The notes below the pieces were generated by a model, which worked only from the letters and a program-made list of their open reading frames with translations, was not told where the DNA came from and ran no database searches. A DNA stretch of 64,000 nucleotides from Escherichia phage phiE142, in the sequence record NC_055709.1. One strand, written 5' to 3'. Position 1 is the first letter of the stretch, and every line of letters begins with the position of its first letter. This document shows, one piece after another, positions 3,899 to 43,597 of the stretch. Made by a program: the position numbers and the translations under genes.

Positions 3899-4675
3899 AT
3901 GGCAGTAACAGGACCGTGGGTAGGATCGTCTGCAGTAGTTAATACAGGACAAAATTGGATGGGCGGCGCGGCCCAACGATTAAGAATGGGCATTCCGTTC
4001 TGGATGAGTAATATGATAGGTCGATCTGTTGAAATAATTCACACGCTTGGAGCAGACCATAACTTCAATGGTCAATGGTTCCGAGATAGATGTTTTGAGG
4101 CAGGTAGTGCACCTATAGTGTTTAATATCACTGGAGATTTAGTATCATATTCTAAAGATGTTCCTTTATTCTTCATGTATGGAGATACACCGAATGAATA
4201 TGTTCAGTTGAATATACACGGCGTAACGATGTATGGACGTGGCGGTAATGGCGGTAGCAATAGTCCTGGTTCAGCTGGAGGTCATTGTATTCAAAACGAT
4301 ATTGGTGGGAGACTAAGAATTAATAATGGTGGAGCTATTGCTGGAGGTGGCGGCGGTGGTGGCGGCGGATATTATTCTCCTTTTTCAAAAATGAGATTGA
4401 CTTTTGGAGGTGGCGGCGGGCGTCCGTTTGGCGCACCGGGCGGATCTATTGATATGCAATCAGGAGCAACTGCTGGTACTATTTCTGCGCCTGGCGCAGG
4501 GTCTGTGAACGGTATCTATAGCGGCGGTGGCGGTGGCGAAGTTGGCTCCGCAGGAGGTAGATGTAATATTCGTGGTCAAGGATCTGAATACGATGGCGGA
4601 GCTGCTGGTTATGCCGTCATAGGGTCTGCTCCAACGTGGATAAATGTTGGAGCAATATATGGTCCAAGAGTATAA
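3899..4675 (+). CDS. 38: Receptor-recognising tail-fibre adhesin gp38 (T2-type, glycine-rich motifs)
   Basis: Several poly-Gly motifs ([38 protein letters not shown]) separated by variable segments; ATG at 3899 preceded by GGAGG (ORF track begins at a TTG at 3887). Confidence 0.8.
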
Positions 4676-4705
4676 TTTGAATAAATATCCTTAAAAGGAG
4701 GGTCT

Positions 4706-5362
4706 ATGGCAGCACCTAGAATATCATTTTCGCCCTCTGATATTCTGTTGGGTGTTCTAGATCGCTTGTTCAAAGATAATGCTACCGGGAAGGTTCTTGC
4801 TTCCCGGGTAGCTGTCGTAATTCTTTTGTTTATAATGGCGATTGTTTGGTATAGGGGAGATAGTTTCTTTGAGTACTATAAGCAATCAAAGTATGAAACA
4901 TACAGTGAAATTATTGAAAAGGAAAGAAATGCACGCTTTGAATCTGTCGCCCTGGAACAACTCCAGATAGTTCATATATCATCTGAGGCAGACTTTAGTG
5001 CGGTGTATTCTTTCCGCCCTAAAAACTTAAACTATTTTGTTGATATTATAGCATACGAAGGAAGATTACCTTCAACAATAACAGAAAAATCACTTGGAGG
5101 ATATCCTGTTGATAAAACTATGGATGAATATACAGTCCATTTAAATGGACGTCATTATTATTCCAATTCAAAATTTGCTTTTTTACCAACTAAAAAGCCT
5201 ACTCCCGAAATAAATTACATGTACAGTTGTCCATATTTTAATTTGGATAATATCTATGCTGGAACAATAACCATGTACTGGTATAGAAATGATCATATAA
5301 GTAATGACCGCCTTGAATCAATATGTTCTCAGGCGGCCAGAATATTAGGAAGGGCTAAATAA
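4706..5362 (+). CDS. t: Holin (T4 gene t type)
   Basis: 218 aa, N-terminus MAAPRISFSPSDIL, single TM segment, near-identical to T4 holin T as I recall it; position after gene 38. Confidence 0.85.
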   Translation: MAAPRISFSPSDILLGVLDRLFKDNATGKVLASRVAVVILLFIMAIVWYRGDSFFEYYKQSKYETYSEIIEKERNARFESVALEQLQIVHISSEADFSAVYSFRPKNLNYFVDIIAYEGRLPSTITEKSLGGYPVDKTMDEYTVHLNGRHYYSNSKFAFLPTKKPTPEINYMYSCPYFNLDNIYAGTITMYWYRNDHISNDRLESICSQAARILGRAK

Positions 5363-5635
5363 TTATTTGTTTGTATACATCTCTAGATATCGATATACAC
5401 CCTCAAAACCCTCGTTGAATTCGTCGATGAGGGTTTTCTTATCTTCTTGGGTTAATTCAGAAACAATTTTACGGAATGAATTCTGATTTAATTTTCTACC
5501 TTCATGCGTTACTCCAATCTCATTCAGAAATGCAATAAAATTAGCACGATTCTCAACAATATCTTCTCTGGAAAATTTAATCAAAATAGACGCAACAGTA
5601 ATAATTTCACGAACTGTATCAATGTTTTTATTCAT
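5363..5635 (-). CDS. asiA: Anti-sigma70 factor AsiA
   Basis: 90 aa MNKNIDTVREIITVASILIKFSREDIVENRANF... matches T4 AsiA from memory. Confidence 0.9.
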   Translation of the reverse strand: MNKNIDTVREIITVASILIKFSREDIVENRANFIAFLNEIGVTHEGRKLNQNSFRKIVSELTQEDKKTLIDEFNEGFEGVYRYLEMYTNK

Positions 5636-12085: not shown

Positions 12086-13012
12086 TTATTCTGCAAATAA
12101 TTCAGTAACGTCTGAAATTACTTCATAACGACAAGTACGCATCTTAGCATCACCATAGTCAACTGGGATGGATACAACATCACGTGGATGAACTTTAACC
12201 TTAACAACTTTATCTGAGCTAGAACCAAAGTAACGAATATATGATTTAGCGCAAACATGTAGACCACGGGAGCAAGTTTGTGTATCATCATCGTTAACAC
12301 GAGTCCGAGGCATTGAAACAACTTTACCTGGTGAGTTATCAAATGTACCACTATAACAGTCTAAATAGTCCTTACGAACTACTTTCCATGCATAAAAATG
12401 TCCATCTTCAGTGATTTCAATGTCATTTGCAACCAAGAAGTCGAATAAACGTTGTACAGCTTTTTCGCTTGGGTTTTCTAACAGGTTTTCAAGGAATGGC
12501 AGATAGAATTTAAAGTCTTCACCTTTTTCCATGGAATCAATAATACGGTTAACCAGCCCTGAACGAATCTCTATACCTTGATAAAATAAACTACCACCTT
12601 CAATAGTAACATTACCATCAACAAACTTAGTAATAGCTTTCTTGATGTTAATAAGTTCGACAGCTTTACTAAGGTTTCCTGCGACCAGATTAGCTTTAAT
12701 TTCTTCAAAATTTGCATGACTTGATGGGGTCGCATTGTATGCTACGCGTCCTTCAATGATTGAAATAAATTTAGATGACGCGTTCCATACGATTTCTGGA
12801 CGATGACCTGTAATAATAGGTTCATCATTTTTCGGAACTTCTTCAACTTTCGAAGTCTCATCTTCGGCTTTAAAGTTCTTAACAATCTTACGAAGAGTGT
12901 CAGTGGAAATATTGAAGTAATCAGCAATTTCCTGACGGGTCCATTGGCCTGATTTAACCAGTCCGTAAGCTTCTAACTGTTCTTCTTGGGACAAGCATTT
13001 AATATTGTACAT
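12086..13012 (-). CDS. rIIB: rIIB protein
   Basis: 308 aa; MYNIKCL... and long conserved blocks (FYAWKVVR, DDDTQTCSRGLHVC) match T4 rIIB. Confidence 0.9.
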   Translation of the reverse strand: MYNIKCLSQEEQLEAYGLVKSGQWTRQEIADYFNISTDTLRKIVKNFKAEDETSKVEEVPKNDEPIITGHRPEIVWNASSKFISIIEGRVAYNATPSSHANFEEIKANLVAGNLSKAVELINIKKAITKFVDGNVTIEGGSLFYQGIEIRSGLVNRIIDSMEKGEDFKFYLPFLENLLENPSEKAVQRLFDFLVANDIEITEDGHFYAWKVVRKDYLDCYSGTFDNSPGKVVSMPRTRVNDDDTQTCSRGLHVCAKSYIRYFGSSSDKVVKVKVHPRDVVSIPVDYGDAKMRTCRYEVISDVTELFAE

Positions 13013-15540: not shown

Positions 15541-16641
15541 TTACGCTGTGAAGATTTTATCCCACATCGCAACAACTGCATCTCGGTTATACTTCTTCCA
15601 TACTGCTTCAGCACGTTTAACTCGAGCTTCGTACGTGTCAGTGAATTCTAATACAGCTTTTGTGTAAAGCGCAACTACTTCTTTCTTAGGAGTAGAGGAA
15701 TCAATTTCTACACGCACAGTATCTGGGTCATATTCGAATGTCGCATGCGGATAATCCTTAAAAACTAACTGAATTACAGGGACACCTTTAGAAATGGCTT
15801 CAATAGAACTATTCTCTACCGTACCTGTGTCAGGACACGTATTAATAAGTGCTTTAGCTGTTTTAAGACGTTCCATAATTTCACTGTGTGGAGCATCAAT
15901 AATAACAGGATACTTAGCCGGTGGTGCCCATTTGCTTGGACAATAACCAATACCATTTTCGCCTAGTGCTTTAATCGCTTCAAGAGCAACATCAGTACGA
16001 CGCATTTTAGTGTCATAACGTTGTGCACTAATAATCAGATCAGTCGCCGGAAGAACTTCAGGTTTCTCATTCAAACAAATAACCGGATAATCTTCGGCTT
16101 CAAACAACGGATTTGCTCGCCAATAATCATAATCAATTTTGTCAGTCAGACCTGAAGTCATATAACAATATTTGCGTTCAAATTCACGGAAGGCTTTAGT
16201 AGGAGCATAACTCTTACCACCGTTCTTATGAATTTGAATAGTCTGGTCCCAAATTTGAACAATGCCACGAGATACCGGTTCAAATGGTGTTGCCATAAAA
16301 TTCTTATGAACTTTAGAGAGGCCCGCGTCTTTAATTGCCTGAACAGTTAGTTTGGTCGGTTCCATTGTAACAACGAAATCGTACTCATTAATGCCGGCTA
16401 GTTCAACAATCTTACGAGCCATAGTATAACTCATACCTAGACTGAATTTAGTCAGATGACCAACAGGATGATGATTAACCTTCCAATCACCAAATGTGTC
16501 ATTATCAAAACCGATATAATCAATATCGGCACCGATAGAAACTAAATATTTCAACACATTTAAATGTACTGCTTCAAGACCACCTTGTACACGTTCAGGA
16601 TTAAATGGGACTGCACGAGATGGGATAAACATAACTTTCAT
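15541..16641 (-). CDS. GT-B fold glycosyltransferase (GT4-like), candidate DNA sugar transferase
   Basis: 366 aa; N-terminal MKVMFIPSR...GGLEAVHLNVLKYL and C-terminal ENSSIEAISKGVPVIQ resemble GT4 donor-binding motifs; located between rIIA.1 and gene 39. Confidence 0.7.
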   Translation of the reverse strand: MKVMFIPSRAVPFNPERVQGGLEAVHLNVLKYLVSIGADIDYIGFDNDTFGDWKVNHHPVGHLTKFSLGMSYTMARKIVELAGINEYDFVVTMEPTKLTVQAIKDAGLSKVHKNFMATPFEPVSRGIVQIWDQTIQIHKNGGKSYAPTKAFREFERKYCYMTSGLTDKIDYDYWRANPLFEAEDYPVICLNEKPEVLPATDLIISAQRYDTKMRRTDVALEAIKALGENGIGYCPSKWAPPAKYPVIIDAPHSEIMERLKTAKALINTCPDTGTVENSSIEAISKGVPVIQLVFKDYPHATFEYDPDTVRVEIDSSTPKKEVVALYTKAVLEFTDTYEARVKRAEAVWKKYNRDAVVAMWDKIFTA

Positions 16642-16650
16642 AATTAAGCC

Positions 16651-16685
16651 TTATTAAAATTAAAATGAAGCTCCCGAAGGAGCTT
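16651..16685 (-). terminator. Terminator-like hairpin
   Basis: Minus strand AAGCTCCTTCGGGAGCTT followed by CATTTTAATTTTAAT, overlapping the HNH gene stop. Confidence 0.5.
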
Positions 16686-17496
16686 AGGACATCCAACACA
16701 TTTTATAACCTTTGCAGGTTCTGTTAGGATTATTTAATGCTTTCAATATATTAGAAGACCCTATACCTAAATACTCCCTTAATTCATAAAGATAGTTAAA
16801 ATCAATAGTTTCACCTGTTTTTACACTTGTGATTCTTATAGGCCTTCTTTCATATTTAGATTTATACAACTCTCTAGTCTTAGCTTTAGTTTCTTCTGAC
16901 CTAGGAGTGTATGGTTTAAATCCTTTTGTTTTAAATGTTTCCATTCTTGATTTAGTTATTTTATCCTGATGTTCTTTTGTTTTTACAGGTGCTTTTCGCC
17001 CATTCTCCCAAGATAACTTGTTGGCCTGTATTATTTTATCTATTGCTTCTTGCGTATGAGTTTTACCATAAAATGGATTTAATTCGCCTATACGTTGTGA
17101 AGCAATATGTGACATTAATTCTCTTGTTGCTTTAGTATGTTTTTTACCTTTAAATGGGTTGCCATTTTTAGCAATCCATTCTTTCATAAATCTAGAGTGC
17201 TCTTTAGAGAATTCTTGTTTAAGCCAATCATAATCTCTAGAATTTCTAGCTCCTATGTAAAAAGCTCTAATAGCCATAAGCATAGAACGGTTCTTATGAA
17301 TTTTATAAAGCAATAAATGGGCGATAAAATGCTCTCTAGGGGTCATTTTAACTAGATTTGATTTAGCATTACTCCCGCCCATAGATTTAGGCAAAATATG
17401 GTGAGTTTCAGTATAATTAGGAATAGTGCTGCGGTTTTTAGCCGCAGCGATAAGTTTATCATAAATTTTACGATAATTCATTATCCTAGCATCCAA
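16684..17496 (-). CDS. HNH homing endonuclease with NUMOD3 repeats
   Basis: ETHHILPKSMGGSNAKSNLVKMTPREHFIAH HNH motif plus two NPF.GK.HT....L repeats; overlaps the end of gene 39. Confidence 0.8.
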   Translation of the reverse strand: MDARIMNYRKIYDKLIAAAKNRSTIPNYTETHHILPKSMGGSNAKSNLVKMTPREHFIAHLLLYKIHKNRSMLMAIRAFYIGARNSRDYDWLKQEFSKEHSRFMKEWIAKNGNPFKGKKHTKATRELMSHIASQRIGELNPFYGKTHTQEAIDKIIQANKLSWENGRKAPVKTKEHQDKITKSRMETFKTKGFKPYTPRSEETKAKTRELYKSKYERRPIRITSVKTGETIDFNYLYELREYLGIGSSNILKALNNPNRTCKGYKMCWMS

Positions 17497-35440: not shown

Positions 35441-35803
35441 TTAAAAGAATTTAAATTTTTTCTTGGTTCGTTCATTAAAAGCTTGTTGTACCTGCATTGT
35501 AACACATTTTTCAACATGTGGTGCAAGTTCTGCTTTTCTGTCCTGGTCAAGAACTGCAAAGTCCATTACGATTTTACCATCAACCCAGTCTAGTTTTGTA
35601 ATATAGACTATATGATGAGAACCGTCTTCAAGTGTAATCAGAATCTCTTGAATGACATTTTCCATTGCTGAACGGATAATTTTAAGAGATTCATTAAACA
35701 CTCGTTCTTTGCGAATGTCTTCCCCTTCCGAAGAAGGGGATTCATCAACGATTTCTAGATTTAAATCATCGAGATTATTCATCGAAATCTTCCATTTCGT
35801 CAA
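35441..35803 (-). CDS. gp40-like protein (120 aa)
   Basis: Positional call between uvsX and 41. Confidence 0.45.
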   Translation of the reverse strand: MTKWKISMNNLDDLNLEIVDESPSSEGEDIRKERVFNESLKIIRSAMENVIQEILITLEDGSHHIVYITKLDWVDGKIVMDFAVLDQDRKAELAPHVEKCVTMQVQQAFNERTKKKFKFF

Positions 35804-36947
35804 GGTCGTTTTCTATATCTGCTGCAGATGGAGCATCAGAAGTTTTAACCGGAACTTTAGTTGTTGCTTTGCAATTAATAAGGTCATTAACAGCGTCATC
35901 AACTTCTTTAATAGAAGAGATAGCACCTAGTTTATATTTAGTTTCAATTGCGTCACGAAAAGGTTTGTGTTTAAACAACGGACCCCAGAATTCTACACAA
36001 TCAGTAGCTTTAGCACGCCACGATTTCTCTTCACGAATCATTTCACCTGTTTCTTCGTCAAGGAATTCACGAGCATACCAACCAGCTTTAGGCTTAACAA
36101 CAAATCCAATTTCAGTTGCCATTTCTAACAAGCCACTGAATGGATCAATACCACCATCAAAATTAACTGTGATTGGGAAAGTAGATTTCTCTTTAACTGT
36201 ACGAGATTTTTCTGCTTTCAACGTGAAGTCATAACCGGTCAATTCTGTACCTTCTTTAACCTGACGTTTAGAGATAAAGAATACAGTGTTAGCAGAGTAA
36301 AGAATACCTGTACCACCACCCATAATCTCTTTAGGATATAGTCCGCCGATTTCCATTGCTGTATGGTTGATTGCAACACATGGAATATCTTTAATAGTCA
36401 GATACGGGGTCACAATACGGAAAAGAGATTTAAGTGCCTTAGCACGAGACATATCACCTACGACTTTCTCGTTCAACGCATCTTCGGTTTCTTTCTTAGA
36501 TGCAGTATTACCGATTGAATCGATAAAGATAATAACTTTATCACCGCGTTCAATTGCATCAAGCTGATTAGTCATATCAACTTTAAGTTGTTCGACAGAT
36601 TGAATCGGAGTATGAACTACACGGTCTAAATCAACACCCATTGAACGAAAATAAGATTCTGAAGCACCAAATTCTGAGTCATAGAACAAACAGATTGCAT
36701 CTTTATATTTCTTCATATAAGCTGCAACCATAGTTAGTCCAAACAATGTTTTAAAATGTTTAGAAGGTGCAGCAAAAATAGTCAAGCCTGATTGCAATCC
36801 TGCATTCAGAGCACCACCTAGTGCAATATTCAACATCGGAATACGAGTAGGGACTTCATCACGATTATTAAACAGCTTAGACTTAGTCAAGTCTGCAGTC
36901 ATTTTAGAAGTAGAAGCTTTAATCAGACGAGATTTTAAATCAGACAT
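35775..36947 (-). CDS. uvsX: UvsX recombinase (RecA-like)
   Basis: 390 aa; MSDLKSRLIKASTSKMTADL... and RecA core match T4 UvsX. Confidence 0.92.
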   Translation of the reverse strand: MSDLKSRLIKASTSKMTADLTKSKLFNNRDEVPTRIPMLNIALGGALNAGLQSGLTIFAAPSKHFKTLFGLTMVAAYMKKYKDAICLFYDSEFGASESYFRSMGVDLDRVVHTPIQSVEQLKVDMTNQLDAIERGDKVIIFIDSIGNTASKKETEDALNEKVVGDMSRAKALKSLFRIVTPYLTIKDIPCVAINHTAMEIGGLYPKEIMGGGTGILYSANTVFFISKRQVKEGTELTGYDFTLKAEKSRTVKEKSTFPITVNFDGGIDPFSGLLEMATEIGFVVKPKAGWYAREFLDEETGEMIREEKSWRAKATDCVEFWGPLFKHKPFRDAIETKYKLGAISSIKEVDDAVNDLINCKATTKVPVKTSDAPSAADIENDLDEMEDFDE

Positions 36948-37046
36948 TGTATTTTTCCATAGGCATCATTATATTTTACTCATGTTTAAAAGATAAGATG
37001 ATTATATACTAATGATTATACAGCATTTAAAACTTTAAACAGGCTC

Positions 37047-37595
37047 TTAACGAGCCCATTTGATGATTTCTGTAATCAAATCATTACGTTCGCTTGCATT
37101 AAATCCTATAACTTTGTTAGCACCATCATGATTAAGTAATTGATACGTTTGGATTTTGTTATGAATTGCAAACTCTTCAAAATGTGAAATGACTGTATTA
37201 AAACCGAATGAAGACAAAGTAATAAGGTCGTCTTCAAAACTTTCAGTCATTTCGTTACGTGTTAAAATAATTGTGAACACGTCATGGTTTTGGCAAAGAC
37301 GAACATAATCCTGCTCATAAACATCAAGAACCGAGTCAGCATCTTGTCGAATACGTCCATAAACCCAGTTACTAATATATCCACGGTCTAACAGATAAAT
37401 CTTAGTAGGGTCTAAATAATTCAACATCGTTTCGAAACAGCCAACTTCATTTCGAGACTTAACATCGAAACGTCCATCAACTGTTCGTTTAGGGAAATCA
37501 ATCTTTACATATCTTTCACTAATTTCCATTATGTCATTAATGAAAGTTGTTTTACCAGCATTATCCGGGCCATCTACTAAAATAATTTTAGCCAT
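37047..37595 (-). CDS. P-loop kinase-fold protein (NMP/sugar kinase-like)
   Basis: Walker A ILVDGPDNAGKTT at N-terminus, 182 aa; occupies part of the T4 beta-gt slot. Confidence 0.55.
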   Translation of the reverse strand: MAKIILVDGPDNAGKTTFINDIMEISERYVKIDFPKRTVDGRFDVKSRNEVGCFETMLNYLDPTKIYLLDRGYISNWVYGRIRQDADSVLDVYEQDYVRLCQNHDVFTIILTRNEMTESFEDDLITLSSFGFNTVISHFEEFAIHNKIQTYQLLNHDGANKVIGFNASERNDLITEIIKWAR

Positions 37596-37596
37596 T

Positions 37597-38496
37597 TTAT
37601 TCCTCGATTACGACATCTTCGTATTTAGGTATATTATACGGCGAAGAAATTAAAGCATTAAAGTAGATGAACTCACCAAGACCTGGATGGAATACTTCTT
37701 CAGGATTTTCGAAATATTGAATCTTCGGACGTCCTTTAAGAATTTGGTAGTACTCAGTTTTAGTTGGTTTAAAAATTCTAATCAGCGCTTCTTCAGGATA
37801 CTTATTTCTGTCGAAGCTATTATTTGGATCGGTTATATAAAGCGGTTGACCTAATTGAATTGCACATTCAACCACTTGTTCAAAATGATAACACGGATCA
37901 CTAATTCGAAATGGATGAAAAATACCATCTACATGAATAGGAGCCAAATCACCTACAAGACGCTGCATGATGGAAGGACGTATAACTTTCTGCGTTACGA
38001 TAATCTTATTATCATCTGCGCCAGCGTTAACCAGCACTTCCTTTTGACGTTTATTCAACACAGTTGTTTGGATTGAACGATTAACCGACAACATGTCGGT
38101 TTTTAAGAATTCGTCAATATAAAAACGTGGTTTATTAGGGTCTGCAGTGATATTGAAATTGAATTCTACATCAAAAGCGCCGTCATATCCAGTGATATCT
38201 GTGATTAGAAAATCACAATCATAATAAGCAATTAATGAATCAACCACAAATTCATTTTCAGACCAGAAATATTTACGGGTGTTATACGCGTTATCTTTAT
38301 ACCATAATGGAACAAACTTAAATTCTGGAAAAAGACGTTCGCATTCTTTAATATCAGATGCATTACGTGGATATGTAATCACATCACCCGGATTAGCACG
38401 GTGCAAATGAAGTTGGAAGTTGCCATCCTTAAGGATAGCATACTGTCCAGTTTCATAAGACCGCATACTCAAGATAGGTACGCGGAAAATAGCCAT
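37597..38496 (-). CDS. Hypothetical protein (299 aa) in the beta-gt slot
   Basis: No recognisable motif; translationally coupled to flanking genes. Confidence 0.5.
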   Translation of the reverse strand: MAIFRVPILSMRSYETGQYAILKDGNFQLHLHRANPGDVITYPRNASDIKECERLFPEFKFVPLWYKDNAYNTRKYFWSENEFVVDSLIAYYDCDFLITDITGYDGAFDVEFNFNITADPNKPRFYIDEFLKTDMLSVNRSIQTTVLNKRQKEVLVNAGADDNKIIVTQKVIRPSIMQRLVGDLAPIHVDGIFHPFRISDPCYHFEQVVECAIQLGQPLYITDPNNSFDRNKYPEEALIRIFKPTKTEYYQILKGRPKIQYFENPEEVFHPGLGEFIYFNALISSPYNIPKYEDVVIEE

Positions 38497-39212
38497 TAGT
38501 CAAGGAATCCTTTAACATAATCAAAATCACGTTCAAACACATGGGCACTTACCATGGTATGAGTATAATCACCAACTTCTACACCGCATTCGTTAGCGAT
38601 ATAATGAAGTAATTTTCCTTGGAGATAAAAATCCAACTGCATAACAACAGCACAGTTCTGAGAACGCATATGACAGTGGGTATAAAGCTTACCATCACGA
38701 ATATAATAAGTCACTGAGTCAGTACATGGATATTCAAGCGTTTCATCCGAATCAAGCAAAGCCTGATCAGAACTTTCTAGAATTTGGAACACAACTCTTC
38801 GAGAGTTAGGCTTCTCTTTAAGTTCTTTTAGAAGAGCTGGTAATTGGGCCGCAATGCGAGGACCATAGAAAGTGTTGAAGTTCGCCGGCAAAACATCTGA
38901 TTTTGGTTTAGAAATAAATTTAGCGACATTAGGATATGCCTTAAACGCTTCTTCTGCGTTGGTACCACCAGAAATCATAAACTTCCAGAAGTCTTCGGCA
39001 TATTCATAAGAGATGCGGTTAATACGTGGGTCGGTCATTTTGAATGATGATGGAGTGTCAACAACTACTGTCATAGACCCAATTTCATTACAACGTCCAA
39101 TACGAGAATCAGTTACGAATTCCGGGTTTTCTAAAATTTCACGATTGACTGCTTTAAATGCGGTTTGAAAATCTGCGGCTTTGATATATTTCATTGTGTT
39201 ATGTTTTCCCAT
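38496..39212 (-). CDS. 42: dCMP hydroxymethylase gp42-like (thymidylate synthase fold)
   Basis: PCTDSVTYYIRDGKL...HMRSQN block parallels T4 gp42 CTNTVQYLIRDKK...NMRSND; 238 aa. Confidence 0.65.
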   Translation of the reverse strand: MGKHNTMKYIKAADFQTAFKAVNREILENPEFVTDSRIGRCNEIGSMTVVVDTPSSFKMTDPRINRISYEYAEDFWKFMISGGTNAEEAFKAYPNVAKFISKPKSDVLPANFNTFYGPRIAAQLPALLKELKEKPNSRRVVFQILESSDQALLDSDETLEYPCTDSVTYYIRDGKLYTHCHMRSQNCAVVMQLDFYLQGKLLHYIANECGVEVGDYTHTMVSAHVFERDFDYVKGFLD

Positions 39213-39254: not shown

Positions 39255-39494
39255 TTATTTGAATTTCTTGACAATGTTGATATAACGTAAAGCTTCAGCA
39301 TCGATACTTCCAAGAACACTATGAAGAAATGCATCAGCGTAGTATTCCAATTGAACAGGTTCTTTAATCACTTTAGCCGCTTTAGTTTCAAAAAGGCCCA
39401 TCAGGGCCTTTTTAAGAATTTGTTCATTAGTGTTCAGTTTCATAGTCAAAATCTCTTCATTAAGTTGGTGGTTAAAAGTTTTTCTAGAAATCAT
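39255..39494 (-). CDS. Hypothetical protein (79 aa)
   Basis: ORF only. Confidence 0.45.
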   Translation of the reverse strand: MISRKTFNHQLNEEILTMKLNTNEQILKKALMGLFETKAAKVIKEPVQLEYYADAFLHSVLGSIDAEALRYINIVKKFK

Positions 39495-40666
39495 TCCGGG
39501 TATCTCAAAGCGTCATCAGAGTTAGTTATATCAATAATAGATATAGAGTTTTCTGCTAACCCGTTTTTAGATAATTGACGTTTATAATATCTTTCACAAT
39601 ATGTACACGTCGTCCCGCAGATTTCATTAGCACAATCGAAATCTGGATGTCTGAACCACCTTTTTTCTAAAAAGCCATCTAACAAAGAGGTTTCAATATT
39701 TACTGTATGTGAAAACTCAGTCTCATTTTCAAGAGTGAAAATAGTCTCTAAAGGCTTCCACAGTTCTAACAAATTACCTTCAAACTTTTCAGAAGCGTAT
39801 GCTTCAAGAACTTTCAAAATGTAGTCTGTGCTACCTGTACGTCCTGAAACTTTGAATTGAGTGATACCAATATCATTATAAAGTTTCAAATCTTGAGGAC
39901 GAACAAAACGAGTTCTCAACCAGTTAAATGGGTCTGTATCACGAGCTTTAATACAGTGCTGCATAGGATATCCGTTTAAGGATTTAGCATCATCAGCGGT
40001 AACATCAGTACTATGGAAAATATAGCAAGAGTCACGATAGCTACAATGTGTTGTATACCCTTTACCAGCATTAGAACAGAACTCATTTACAAGAACTTCA
40101 AATATTATATTGTTCTTATTGCAAAACTCTGCTGCACGCTTCAGGAAAGAAACTGAACGGTTCTTATGAATTCCACAGCAGACCTTTTTGATATTATACT
40201 GGTCATGCAAGTATTTGATTTGAGTTACAGCATCGACATGTAGAATTGTTGAAACTTCAATCTCAATGTCTTTATTGACTTCACGAACAATTTCCATAAC
40301 AACAGGGTTAGCGATAGTAATACGCCATACGCCTATTGACCAAAGATACTGAACATAATCCTGAATAGCTTTCTTCTTCCACTCAACTAGTTCTCTTTTT
40401 GAACCAGGATTTATCGTGTTGAGTGTATAGTTAAAGCAAATACCTAATTCGTTACAACGTTTAACGTAATCTTCTAACATCTTTTTGTCAACGTCAGGAA
40501 GCCTAAAATCAGGTCTGGCTGCTACAAAAGCCATTTCTCTTGTAGAGCCATATACTTCGTTTATCAAGCTATTAGGATAAGTTTTATTGAGCTCTACGAT
40601 TTTATCGAGAAGAGCTAAATCAAAATTCGTTCCGATTTTAAAAGTATTCATTTTTTTGCATCTCAC
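39491..40666 (-). CDS. Cys-cluster protein (391 aa), possible Fe-S/metal enzyme
   Basis: C-terminal CANEICGTTCTYC (Cx4Cx3Cx2C) plus further Cys; no confident family assignment. Confidence 0.5.
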   Translation of the reverse strand: MRCKKMNTFKIGTNFDLALLDKIVELNKTYPNSLINEVYGSTREMAFVAARPDFRLPDVDKKMLEDYVKRCNELGICFNYTLNTINPGSKRELVEWKKKAIQDYVQYLWSIGVWRITIANPVVMEIVREVNKDIEIEVSTILHVDAVTQIKYLHDQYNIKKVCCGIHKNRSVSFLKRAAEFCNKNNIIFEVLVNEFCSNAGKGYTTHCSYRDSCYIFHSTDVTADDAKSLNGYPMQHCIKARDTDPFNWLRTRFVRPQDLKLYNDIGITQFKVSGRTGSTDYILKVLEAYASEKFEGNLLELWKPLETIFTLENETEFSHTVNIETSLLDGFLEKRWFRHPDFDCANEICGTTCTYCERYYKRQLSKNGLAENSISIIDITNSDDALRYPE

Positions 40667-40708: not shown

Positions 40709-41110
40709 TTATAGATTCGGTTTATATGATTTAAATGTTTCGAATTCGCCTTTATTCATAAGAGCTTTGAATTCGTCAGGACGCATAGCTTTGTCGTCGA
40801 TAATCCAATCATATACTGGTTTATGTGTTAGCAAATTATGGTACTTCAAGCCAATGTTTGCCAAGTTCTGAATCAGACTTGGGAGAATGTCAATTGCTAT
40901 ACGACCAGGACCTACTGACTTCATACCGCGAGCAGTGTAAAGCGTTATGGTATGCCCTGCATCATACAGGGCATTAATGGCAGTCACCATTTCGACGTCC
41001 GGTTTGAAGTTCACGTAATCACGATTGTTATTCCACTCTGTTATACAATCATCGACGTCAAAACAAAGATTAAGCATGTTTTCTACACGGTGCATTAGAT
41101 TCGTTCCCAT
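40709..41110 (-). CDS. HAD-like phosphatase
   Basis: 133 aa; N-terminal FDVDDCIT (DxD-type motif I, non-canonical), TARG motif II-like, WIIDDKA motif IV-like. Confidence 0.5.
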   Translation of the reverse strand: MGTNLMHRVENMLNLCFDVDDCITEWNNNRDYVNFKPDVEMVTAINALYDAGHTITLYTARGMKSVGPGRIAIDILPSLIQNLANIGLKYHNLLTHKPVYDWIIDDKAMRPDEFKALMNKGEFETFKSYKPNL

Positions 41111-42780
41111 TGATGAGTGATATCGCCACCGATTGGACGATAGGAAACACCAGTTTCTTTATCAGTTAGTACCCATTTACCAGGATTTTTTGTAATCAGA
41201 GTAGCCGTTACAGGTTCTGCTACGTCATAACTAATAGAGCCATCTTGAAGTACACGGCCCATGTTACGTAATTGCTTAGTCAGAAGTTCCATACCTTTAT
41301 AATATGCGGCCACCGCTTTAAGTGGATTATTCTTGAAATAACCACCTAATGCAATCCAGATAATTGCCACTGCCAAATGATGATACTCGTTAAACGAACT
41401 CATCTTTCCATATTTGTAAACTAATGGATTGATGTTAATAGTCACATTACAAGTTGTTTCATCAATAGTAAACTGGCCCCAGGTCGGATTAGCGTTGAAT
41501 TCATCATAACCTGAAACAGCATAAAGCACTTTAGCTTCATCATACAATTTTGGCCCGTAAATCTTGGTTTCGCCAAAATATCCACGAGGGTCGATAAACT
41601 TGACTTCGCCGTTATCAGTAATCATAGTATTACTGAAGTTCGGGTCACCGTGAATAACAGAGTACTGTCCCTGAGAACGGTTATGATAACGAATAAGATG
41701 TTCTAAAGCTTGTTTCAACATTGGCTTCAGACGTCCAATCTTAGTGTAGTTCACGTGTGTGATTTTACCAAATGAATCAATCAATGGCTGAATGCTTTCA
41801 CAACGATCAATAACTTTCGTATAGAACTCTTTAGTGAAATCACGACGAACAGTTTCAGGACTTACAAAATAAGTGTCTGTGCTGAATTTCAGTGCATCTA
41901 AAATTGCATCAACAATTTGTGGACGAGCAAGACTTGATTTGGATTTAATATATTCAAATGCCGGCTTACCTTTAATACGTTCCATTTCAAAATTATTTTC
42001 ATTTACCGAAACTAACTGAGGAACCGAATCTGATTTCACTTTCAAATACCATGAAATCTCATCTTTTTGAAGAGCTCGACCTTGTTCGGTTAACGCGAAT
42101 TTAGTTACAGTTTCTTCGCCAATTTCAACTGCATTAAAACTACGATTAAGTTCACGAACTTCATGAGCTTTTTCAAGTTTAGGCATATCACCTAAATCAA
42201 TTAGATTCATAAGCTCTGATTTATTGAATGCGCTGCTGTAAAGGAATTCTACGAAATCACGTCCTTTGCAGTATTCATGAATTTCCTCATCAGTAGAACC
42301 CATATAGAATTCCCAGTCTTTGAACTGATAAATTCCTACAACATTACCGCCTGTTGCACCTACATTAGTGATATTTTCACCGTCGAAATTATATCGACAT
42401 TCGTCACCCTTAACATAGATTGCGTTAACATTCCAAGACCATGAACCAAAATCAGGAATAATATCGCACCAGTTAACAACTACGTTATGCCTGTCTAAAT
42501 CTTTGTGTAATTTAGCAAGAGCATAAGCAGAACCATACGCTTCATCAACTGTACGAATAGTCACATTGAACCCTTCTTGCTCACAATAAGCTCGAACGGT
42601 TTCAGCAAATTTTGAATGAACTACTACAATAATTTCATCTGCGCCAAGGTCAGAATAAATTGTATACAAATTGCTCAGAATAGTGTCTTGTTTATAGTTA
42701 ACAAGCACCTTAGGAATATGATGCGTTATTGGATACAAACGAGTTGCCAGTCCAGCACCAAGAATAACAGCTTTTTTCAT
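41095..42780 (-). CDS. Bifunctional sugar-1-phosphate nucleotidyltransferase / APH-type kinase
   Basis: N-terminus KAVILGAGLATRLYPIT (RmlA/GlmU-type); C-terminus VIHGDPNFSNTMI...FIDPRG (aminoglycoside/choline kinase catalytic loop). Confidence 0.7.
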   Translation of the reverse strand: MKKAVILGAGLATRLYPITHHIPKVLVNYKQDTILSNLYTIYSDLGADEIIVVVHSKFAETVRAYCEQEGFNVTIRTVDEAYGSAYALAKLHKDLDRHNVVVNWCDIIPDFGSWSWNVNAIYVKGDECRYNFDGENITNVGATGGNVVGIYQFKDWEFYMGSTDEEIHEYCKGRDFVEFLYSSAFNKSELMNLIDLGDMPKLEKAHEVRELNRSFNAVEIGEETVTKFALTEQGRALQKDEISWYLKVKSDSVPQLVSVNENNFEMERIKGKPAFEYIKSKSSLARPQIVDAILDALKFSTDTYFVSPETVRRDFTKEFYTKVIDRCESIQPLIDSFGKITHVNYTKIGRLKPMLKQALEHLIRYHNRSQGQYSVIHGDPNFSNTMITDNGEVKFIDPRGYFGETKIYGPKLYDEAKVLYAVSGYDEFNANPTWGQFTIDETTCNVTININPLVYKYGKMSSFNEYHHLAVAIIWIALGGYFKNNPLKAVAAYYKGMELLTKQLRNMGRVLQDGSISYDVAEPVTATLITKNPGKWVLTDKETGVSYRPIGGDITHQWERI

Positions 42781-42961: not shown

Positions 42962-43597
42962 TCATTGTTCGCCTCGTAACATGGCACCTAGTGCACCGCC
43001 TGGATGGAACTTAAGGAAATCATTAGAGGTAAATCCACGTTCAGACGAAAGGTTGATAGCAAACGTATCGATAAGCGCTAACAACAATGTAGTGGACATT
43101 GTCGGAGCTAAAGAGTTCTCGTCAACTTCTACCGCGATACCAGTACAGAACGTATAATCAAAAAGAGCTTCGTATTCTTGTGGAATGTCAGGGTTACAAT
43201 GTAACAGAATCTGTTTAACCTGAGGACGAATCATACGAAGATGTTTAGCAACACCTATCATTTCTTCAGTCTTACCAGAACGACTAATATGAATCAACAC
43301 ATCATTAGGCGCAATGAATCCTGCATCACCGTGAGAATAATGCCCAGTGTTCAAGTACATACTCGGGATACCGAGTGAAGCAAATGTCTCAGAAGCTTTA
43401 GTTGCGATATTAGCGTTCTTACCAACACCTGTAATAATTACACGACTTTCATAATTACTCAGTCCTGGGCGTCGAAGAGTTTCTAGAATAGCATTATAAC
43501 GAGCAGGGTTTTGACTAATTACTTTGGCCATAGCGGCCAAAGAAGAAGCTTGTTTTATGATTGCGTCAATAGCGATAGTAATAGGAGTAGTTTTCAT
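42962..43597 (-). CDS. SIS-domain sugar-phosphate isomerase (KdsD/GutQ-like arabinose-5-phosphate isomerase)
   Basis: ITGVGKNANIATKASETFASLGIPS...HGD...LIHISRSGKTEE SIS motifs; 211 aa, no CBS domains. Confidence 0.7.
   Translation of the reverse strand: MKTTPITIAIDAIIKQASSLAAMAKVISQNPARYNAILETLRRPGLSNYESRVIITGVGKNANIATKASETFASLGIPSMYLNTGHYSHGDAGFIAPNDVLIHISRSGKTEEMIGVAKHLRMIRPQVKQILLHCNPDIPQEYEALFDYTFCTGIAVEVDENSLAPTMSTTLLLALIDTFAINLSSERGFTSNDFLKFHPGGALGAMLRGEQ

Follow-up and report, generated by a model that had tools for sequence, protein, structure and literature searches.

A Kinase of the Thymidylate-Kinase Fold and a Predicted GT-B Glycosyltransferase Encoded beside uvsX in Escherichia Phage phiE142 Probably Serve the Arabinosyl-5-Hydroxycytosine Pathway

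Results and Discussion

Two adjacent genes of Escherichia phage phiE142 (NC_055709.1), situated between uvsX and a thymidylate-synthase homologue, very probably both belong to the pathway that yields arabinosyl-5-hydroxycytosine DNA, one encoding a kinase of the thymidylate-kinase fold (182 aa) and the other a glycosyltransferase of predicted GT-B fold (299 aa). Positions given below are those of the window, i.e., the whole stretch of 64,000 nt that was analysed. The best overall explanation, to which we assign a probability of roughly 0.6, is that the cluster of genes between uvsX and the DNA polymerase gene makes arabinosyl-5-hydroxycytosine DNA in the conventional order, with the first sugar added after the base has been built into DNA. 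Judged by sequence, the two ORFs are the orthologues of gp45 and gp46:47 of phage RB69, which have already been published, and they are ordinary for Mosigvirus/RB69-like phages.

Location, Gene Packing and Orthology with RB69

The 182-aa ORF (37047–37595, minus strand) starts MAKIILVDGPDNAGKTT and is separated by 99 nt from uvsX (35775–36947). The 299-aa ORF (37597–38496, minus strand) lies between it and the thymidylate-synthase homologue (38496–39212, minus strand), the gene for which ends in a TAATG that overlaps the start of the 299-aa ORF. A single base intervenes between the stop of the 299-aa ORF and the ATG of the kinase gene, and a Shine-Dalgarno sequence, GAGGA, precedes that ATG. 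The annotated map order in T4 is 41-40-uvsX-segA-b-gt-42-imm-43, and the 182-aa/299-aa pair thus takes up the beta-gt slot while the thymidylate-synthase homologue takes up the gene 42 slot. The initial annotation had placed both ORFs directly after uvsX, at the beta-gt position of T4, and there they are indeed present. A promoter/terminator scan of the cluster yielded fewer sites than shuffled sequence and was uninformative.

The region is 98.3–98.5% identical to that of Mosigvirus phages, and the window, itself from a Mosigvirus, is colinear with RB69 across 10.7 kb (97.4% identity). Over both genes, the 1450-nt alignment to RB69 contains 32 substitutions and one 1-nt indel. Seven nucleotide differences in the kinase gene bring about one amino-acid change (181/182 aa identical to gp45), and 25 in the transferase gene bring about only seven (293/300 codons identical to the repaired gp46:47 after dropping an extra T). 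This T, present in the RB69 reference, makes a stop and is the sole length difference between the 299-aa ORF and RB69 ORF046 plus ORF047; the split of gp46:47 in RB69 has been ascribed to a sequencing error (Lee et al., NAR 2026, PMC13326640). The gene is intact in the window whereas the RB69 reference is split, but no functional difference is expected between the 299-aa protein and RB69 gp46:47, DLP3 gp79 or Thanatos TH1_063. Likewise, the window kinase is no different from RB69 gp45, which is listed with DLP3 gp78 and RL38J1 gp214 as the “nucleotide kinase” of such clusters. Searches of a large protein collection returned 135 homologues of the 299-aa protein and 27 of the kinase, and the 299-aa gene occurs in 347 cultured-phage records. 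Both ORFs are genuine genes and not chance ORFs.

The Surrounding Cluster and the Modified Base

In RB69, the modification cluster comprises gp45 to gp55, and the DNA contains mono- and di-arabinosylated 5-hydroxycytosine (Lee et al., PMC13326640). The same authors showed experimentally that gp48 makes 5-hydroxy-dCMP with flavin and O2, while their labels for gp45 (“nucleotide kinase”) and gp46:47 (“arabinosyltransferase 1”) come from structure prediction only. An earlier study (Thomas et al. 2018) had assigned hydroxymethylcytosine (hmC) to RB69-type DNA, an assignment since corrected; it found only ORF003c, and ORF045–047 were never mentioned in it.

The cluster in the window is near-identical to that of RB69, all of it on the minus strand. 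The 238-aa thymidylate-synthase homologue (Pfam Thymidylat_synt, E 2.3e-15) is the orthologue of RB69 gp48 (236/238 aa), a 5-hydroxy-dCMP synthase. Next to it are a conserved 79-aa protein (39255–39494; phrog_8601, E 6e-52; RB69 gp49 orthologue, 75/79 aa), found in only part of the related clusters, and a U32-family protein of 391 aa (39491–40666; Pfam Peptidase_U32, E 7.5e-11; RB69 gp50 orthologue, 385/389 aa). They are followed by a HAD-like phosphatase of 133 aa (40709–41110; phrog_1238; 126/128 aa against RB69 gp51; equivalent of HY126 AfhF) and a bifunctional sugar-1-phosphate nucleotidyltransferase and kinase of 561 aa (41095–42780; Pfam NTP_transferase, E 4.6e-10; phrog_4098; equivalent of RB69 gp52:53 and HY126 AfhE), the C-terminus of which gives weak kinase-family matches in Pfam; for these two proteins we adopted the roles given by Lee et al. 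(NAR 2026, PMC13326640). An arabinose-5-phosphate isomerase of 211 aa (42962–43597; Pfam SIS, E 4.8e-10; phrog_5670 “arabinose 5-phosphate isomerase”, E 1.6e-116) is the orthologue of RB69 gp55 (207/211 aa). [quoted passage not shown]

The identity of the base follows from the synthase. The 238-aa protein is approximately 98% identical to PDB 9iqc/9ir2/9iqu (E 8e-161) and 25% identical to T4 gp42; we take 9iqc to be the HY126 enzyme. It carries an N at the position of D169 in E. coli ThyA and a D at that of N177 (RSQN...LD), a D169N/N177D signature by which 5-hydroxy-dCMP synthases are recognised (Lee et al., NAR 2026, PMC13326640). The match to 9iqc and the signature together imply that the acceptor base is 5-hydroxycytosine and the sugar arabinose, and not glucose on hmC. 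Of the overall interpretation first put forward for this locus, the enzyme classes survive, but its T4 frame of beta-gt and hmC has to be abandoned, since the adjoining synthase is of the 5-hydroxy-dCMP type and not a hydroxymethylase.

The 299-aa Protein

Neither the single sequence of the 299-aa protein nor a 48-sequence profile gave a match in Pfam or NCBIfam (E ≤ 0.1 / 0.01) or among PDB sequences, and at the sequence level the protein does lack a recognisable motif, as first reported. Only structure prediction provided an identity: the AlphaFold model built on the 48-sequence alignment (pLDDT 94.7, pTM 0.89) consists of two Rossmann-like domains with an intervening cleft, the arrangement of a GT-B fold. 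The comparison with other GT-B folds that had been proposed returned GT4-type enzymes, the closest structural matches being sucrose-phosphate synthase, MshA and BshA, which act on small acceptors, several of them phosphorylated. The likeness is structural only: the bacterial GT4-type GT-B enzymes (sucrose-phosphate synthase 6kih, BshA, MshA, PimA) are only 7–13% identical to the 299-aa protein and count 340–400 aa against its ~300, no EX7E motif is visible in its sequence, and the family sequence models for CAZy GT4/Pfam Glycos_transf_1 do not match it. In the C-terminal half, R197, K246 and H270-P-G do not vary within the family and are plausible candidates as ligands of the diphosphate or ribose.

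The glucosyltransferases of T4, beta (GT63) and alpha (GT72), have the GT-B fold in common with the 299-aa protein and presumably also the role of decorating a modified cytosine, and the gene for T4 beta-gt has the same map position, between a thymidylate-synthase homologue and uvsX. Fold and position are what would speak for a divergent, beta-gt-like enzyme that glucosylates hydroxymethylcytosine DNA. However, the comparison with beta-gt (GT63) that the initial annotation had called for revealed no relationship (hhalign probability of 0.1% for the transferase profile), the neighbouring synthase makes a different base, and RB69-type DNA carries arabinosyl-5-hydroxycytosine now that the old hmC assignment has been corrected; we consider the chance of such a glucosyltransferase vanishingly small.

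Against the window's own 366-aa transferase, the hhalign probability was 0.4%. A recent duplication of the 366-aa transferase and descent from beta-gt are both ruled out as origins of the 299-aa protein by these two values. The suggestion of a “second, highly divergent DNA sugar transferase” was apt as to class, given the predicted GT-B fold, but not as to “second”: the 299-aa enzyme is proposed to act first, the other transferase being the one encoded at 15541–16641. Proteins of the transferase family are acidic, with a median pI of 5.15 (5.2 for the window protein), where T4 beta-gt has a pI of 9.05, a weak hint as to the acceptor.

The 182-aa Protein

Across 21 homologues of the 182-aa protein, there is little or no variation in GPDNAGKTT (the P-loop), FPKRT and DRG, and these motifs align with the P-loop GxDxxGK(S/T), the base-stacking/phosphate motif FPxR and the DR(Y/H) of the vaccinia and yeast thymidylate kinases (Tmk). 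With the Tmk family (vaccinia A48R, yeast Cdc8), it shares the three-dimensional fold, the GxDxxGKT P-loop, FPxR and the DR motif; it differs in having DRG instead of DRY/DRH, and while the family acts on dTMP, the genomic context of the 182-aa kinase points to a modified dCMP. PF02223 does not match, and the score with TIGR00041 is 16.6 bits against a curated cut-off of 83.25; the protein being below the cut-offs for thymidylate kinases, its substrate is not to be read from family membership. We therefore class the 182-aa protein by its fold, as a kinase of the thymidylate-kinase type with a putative substrate. No structural or sequence similarity was found to the T4 gp1-type dNMP kinase (1dek). 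What the two would share is their role: T4 gp1 (RB69 gp159) is also a phage enzyme through which a modified dCMP reaches the dNTP pool.

Conserved Context and Fusion Proteins

We surveyed 51 IMG/VR loci with a transferase homologue, which were scanned with a profile of each cluster protein. Of the 47 loci with a usable upstream flank, 44 encode a thymidylate-synthase homologue, in 40 cases immediately upstream of the transferase gene. The kinase occurs in 44 of the 48 loci with a usable downstream flank, where its gene directly follows that of the transferase in 32 and has another place in the cluster in 12. In thirteen loci there is only the synthase-transferase-kinase triad, with no arabinose-activation genes within 6 kb, which links the kinase to the base and not to the sugar. 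We rejected the idea that the 182-aa protein is a sugar kinase on account of its Tmk-specific motifs and its retention in these 13 clusters; in the original wording, “nucleotide or sugar kinase fold”, it is the first half that holds.

The triad-only loci also bear on the transferase. Thanatos TH1_063, a presumed homologue of 300 aa with a glycosyltransferase fold, is encoded next to a thymidylate-synthase homologue, and the purified protein forms UDP-xylose from UTP and xylose-1-phosphate (Thanatos paper). By analogy, the 299-aa protein could supply the activated sugar as a UDP-pentose pyrophosphorylase. This we hold to be highly improbable: the predicted fold is GT-B and not that of a nucleotidyltransferase, the cluster already has a nucleotidyltransferase domain in the 561-aa protein, the HY126 equivalent of which, AfhE, has reported UDP-arabinose pyrophosphorylase activity (Lee et al., PMC13326640), and in the 13 triad-only loci genes producing a sugar-1-phosphate are missing within 6 kb. 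Apart from its orthology being presumed, the activity of TH1_063 may reflect a side reaction, a reaction run in reverse or a host enzyme that co-purified.

The association of kinase and transferase extends beyond close relatives. Two distant metagenomic contigs carry a transferase gene (36–38% identity) followed by an overlapping gene for a kinase homologue (hhalign 99.3–99.4%). In a different lineage of phages, which have RecA and a polymerase of the DnaE type, the order is kinase-like gene, transferase, U32, polymerase, and the U32 protein encoded beside the transferase is 50% identical to the 391-aa protein of the window; no thymidylate-synthase homologue was found within 6 kb in this lineage. 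Kinase and transferase form a conserved pair in T4-like and DnaE-type phages, which goes beyond the accounts cited here. An exhaustive profile search of 1.84 billion proteins retrieved only 230 cluster representatives of the transferase family, which must, therefore, be small.

Furthermore, we found fusion proteins of approximately 550–600 aa (e.g., P0258, P0264, P0286 and P0288), in which a P-loop domain containing LEGFDRIGKD and TRxFISDxVYG comes after the transferase; they are encoded in clusters of like kind. One of them matches Pfam Thymidylate_kin (E 1.2e-4). The kinase profile matched single fusion proteins weakly (1.4% and 15.7%), while a profile of four fusion C-terminal domains matched the kinase family at 82.7% (E 9e-6). 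As far as these profile comparisons go, the evidence that the fusions provide for a link between transferase and kinase is moderate, not strong, and it confirms the likely membership of the two ORFs in one pathway. In a second class of fusions, a HAD-like domain occupies the N-terminus of the transferase; it has no BLASTP similarity to the HAD protein of the window. Fusion is no proof of consecutive steps, because the HAD-transferase fusion joins steps that are not consecutive.

In T4-type phages, dTMP is already served by the gp1 kinase. The 182-aa protein has the fold and motifs of Tmk and bears the label “thymidylate kinase” in phrog_761 and RefSeq, which could make it an ordinary dTMP kinase for nucleotide supply that stands beside the modification genes by chance. 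This is very unlikely, given the presence of gp1, the TIGR00041 score far under the cut-off, the co-occurrence with the transferase in 44/48 loci and across unrelated phage lineages, and the fusion to the transferase in several proteins. The dispensability of the thymidylate kinase of another phage (phage Tn-seq preprint) would be compatible with such a supply function; the preprint, which names LC53 and Bas46, holds no essentiality data for the kinase or the transferase gene of the cluster.

Order of the Steps

In the conventional order that we prefer, the thymidylate-synthase homologue would first hydroxylate dCMP to 5-hydroxy-dCMP, as shown for the RB69 orthologue. The 182-aa enzyme would convert 5-hydroxy-dCMP to the diphosphate, upon which the host NDP kinase and the phage polymerase would incorporate 5-hydroxycytosine into DNA. 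The 299-aa GT-B enzyme would then transfer the base-proximal alpha-D-arabinofuranose from UDP-arabinofuranose to the 5-OH, and the 366-aa transferase would put on the second arabinose. The specific assignment within this scheme, with the kinase acting on 5-hydroxy-dCMP and the transferase on DNA, has in our estimate somewhat better than even odds. To our knowledge, every sugar modification of phage DNA of which the timing is established is post-replicative, T4 being the paradigm. We favour the conventional order because of this paradigm, because co-expression of gp48 and a dNMP kinase leads to 5-hydroxycytosine in E. coli DNA, and because the later arabinose additions take place on DNA (for both, Lee et al., PMC13326640).

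Some observations run against the conventional assignment. RB69 gp159, a T4-gp1-type kinase, is itself able to make the diphosphate from 5-hydroxy-dCMP in vitro (Lee et al., PMC13326640); a second kinase for this step seems superfluous, but is hardly ever lost. No single transferase was active on 5-hydroxycytosine DNA with UDP-Araf or UDP-Arap, and whether the first arabinosylation takes place on the mononucleotide or on DNA was not distinguishable (Lee et al., PMC13326640). The contrast between the acidic transferase family and the basic T4 beta-gt also counts, weakly, against the assignment.

These observations would find a place if glycosylation occurred at the nucleotide level. The transferase would then arabinosylate 5-hydroxy-dCMP before replication, the 182-aa protein would be a dedicated kinase for arabinosyl-5-hydroxy-dCMP, a bulky product that a gp1-type kinase would refuse, and the polymerase would insert the glycosylated nucleotide. 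The gene order synthase, transferase, kinase, with its overlapping or abutting stops and starts, reads like such a sequence of steps, and fusions occur in that same order, transferase then kinase, although fusions also join non-consecutive steps, as in the HAD-transferase proteins. Although gp1-type kinases handle 5-hydroxy-dCMP, 44 of 48 loci retain the second kinase, and its pairing with the transferase persists in the non-T4 lineage with the DnaE polymerase, but in 12 loci it is not adjacent to the transferase gene. The best structural matches of the transferase glycosylate small acceptors, several of them phosphorylated; the negative assays on 5-hydroxycytosine DNA and the acidity of the family also fit, as weak indications. 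Set against this are the post-replicative timing of phage DNA sugar modifications wherever it is established and the fact that the synthase and a dNMP kinase, expressed on their own, are enough for 5-hydroxy-dCTP to be formed and built in. Overall, we regard arabinosylation before replication as rather unlikely, and retain the conventional order as the preferred reading.

Implications

The two genes described here re-identify components of a pathway that was described in 2025–2026; they do not represent a new kind of system but one that is already known. For annotation, a correction is due: nearly all 347 phage records still list the 299-aa gene as “hypothetical”, and its neighbours often bear a wrong name (dCMP hydroxymethylase, phosphoheptose isomerase or dCMP deaminase). 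With the modification, these phages are protected against restriction enzymes, CRISPR-Cas and DNA glycosylases. We know of no earlier phage case of pre-replicative sugar hypermodification; if nucleotide-level arabinosylation were true, the first sugar would enter DNA on a dNTP, and this would be the first such case in a phage. The level at which the first sugar is added (DNA or nucleotide) and the reason for a second kinase would decide how the modification might be reconstituted in vitro or removed from therapeutic phages by engineering.

Transferase Reading Frame and Public Annotation

The gene for the 299-aa transferase (37597-38496, minus strand) is an unbroken open reading frame in the window and in most relatives, whereas the RB69 reference (NC_004928) carries one surplus T in the corresponding section (4598-5498 of locus L058), where it reads GTAGTGTGA versus GTAGGTGA in the window. 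The surplus T generates the stop codon that divides ORF046 from ORF047. RB69 ORF052/053 are likewise split, and their counterpart in the window is a single ORF of 561 aa.

Annotation of the cluster is inconsistent across public GenBank records (PQ480333 and others). The transferase gene is nearly always "hypothetical". The 5-hydroxy-dCMP synthase appears either as a thymidylate synthase or as a dCMP hydroxymethylase, the HAD phosphatase bears the name "phosphoheptose isomerase" and the AfhE-like gene is, in one record, a "dCMP deaminase".

Insertions and Intergenic Sequences

In the close relative NRG-P0074, an inserted homing endonuclease (12149-12910 of locus L001, PQ480333) separates the HAD gene from the AfhE-like gene; unlike NRG-P0074, the window has none there. 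At 16684-17496 (minus strand), between the second arabinosyltransferase gene and the topoisomerase gene, the window has an ORF of 270 aa that contains a NUMOD3 motif and probably encodes a homing endonuclease.

The 99-nt spacer ahead of uvsX (36948-37046, minus strand) contains AAATGCTGTATAATCATTAGTATAAT, similar to the MotA-box middle promoters of T4 (TATAAT about 12 nt after TGCT), which suggests that uvsX may have a promoter of its own, besides read-through from the modification genes.

Fusion Proteins and Variant Clusters

Two types of fusion occur in the transferase family. In one, the transferase is followed by a thymidylate-kinase-like domain (proteins P0258, P0264, P0286, P0288; loci L059, L061, L062); in the other, a HAD-like phosphatase domain precedes it (P0166, P0176, P0177, P0192, P0197, P0263; locus L060). 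Besides an AfhE-like gene, clusters of both types contain a SIS isomerase, accompanied by a thymidylate-synthase homologue in L060 and L062 and by a U32 gene in L061.

One distant cluster, of metagenomic origin, has a flavin reductase-like gene of the Flavodoxin_2 family (L004, 4539-5054; L005, 1815-2330) that lies directly upstream of the thymidylate-synthase homologue and overlaps it. This fits flavin dependence of the 5-hydroxy-dCMP synthase.

The synthase-transferase-kinase triad is present in 13 IMG/VR loci (L032-L040, L042-L045), where isomerase, HAD and AfhE-like genes are all absent within 6 kb. These phages may put a host-supplied sugar other than arabinose on 5-hydroxycytosine.

A U32-Family Protein in the Cluster

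The window encodes a U32-family protein (39491-40666, minus strand), orthologous to RB69 gp50, for which the sole label in Lee et al. is "sugar or heterocycle reductase" (PMC13326640). U32 enzymes include the O2-independent hydroxylases RlhA, TrhP and UbiU/V, and RlhA generates 5-hydroxycytidine in 23S rRNA (PMC5727448, PMC6599085, PMC10990095). The phage thymidylate-synthase-type hydroxylase requires O2.

In a DnaE-type phage lineage, a U32 gene immediately follows the transferase gene (L051, 6954-8051; L054, 5783-6865; L056, 6870-7970), with no thymidylate-synthase homologue within 6 kb; the L051 protein is 50% identical to that of the window. Our literature search found no proposal of an anaerobic U32 route to 5-hydroxycytosine. 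Because its kin are O2-independent, the synthase is O2-dependent and the DnaE-type loci carry U32 without a nearby synthase homologue, the U32 protein may provide gut phages with such a route.
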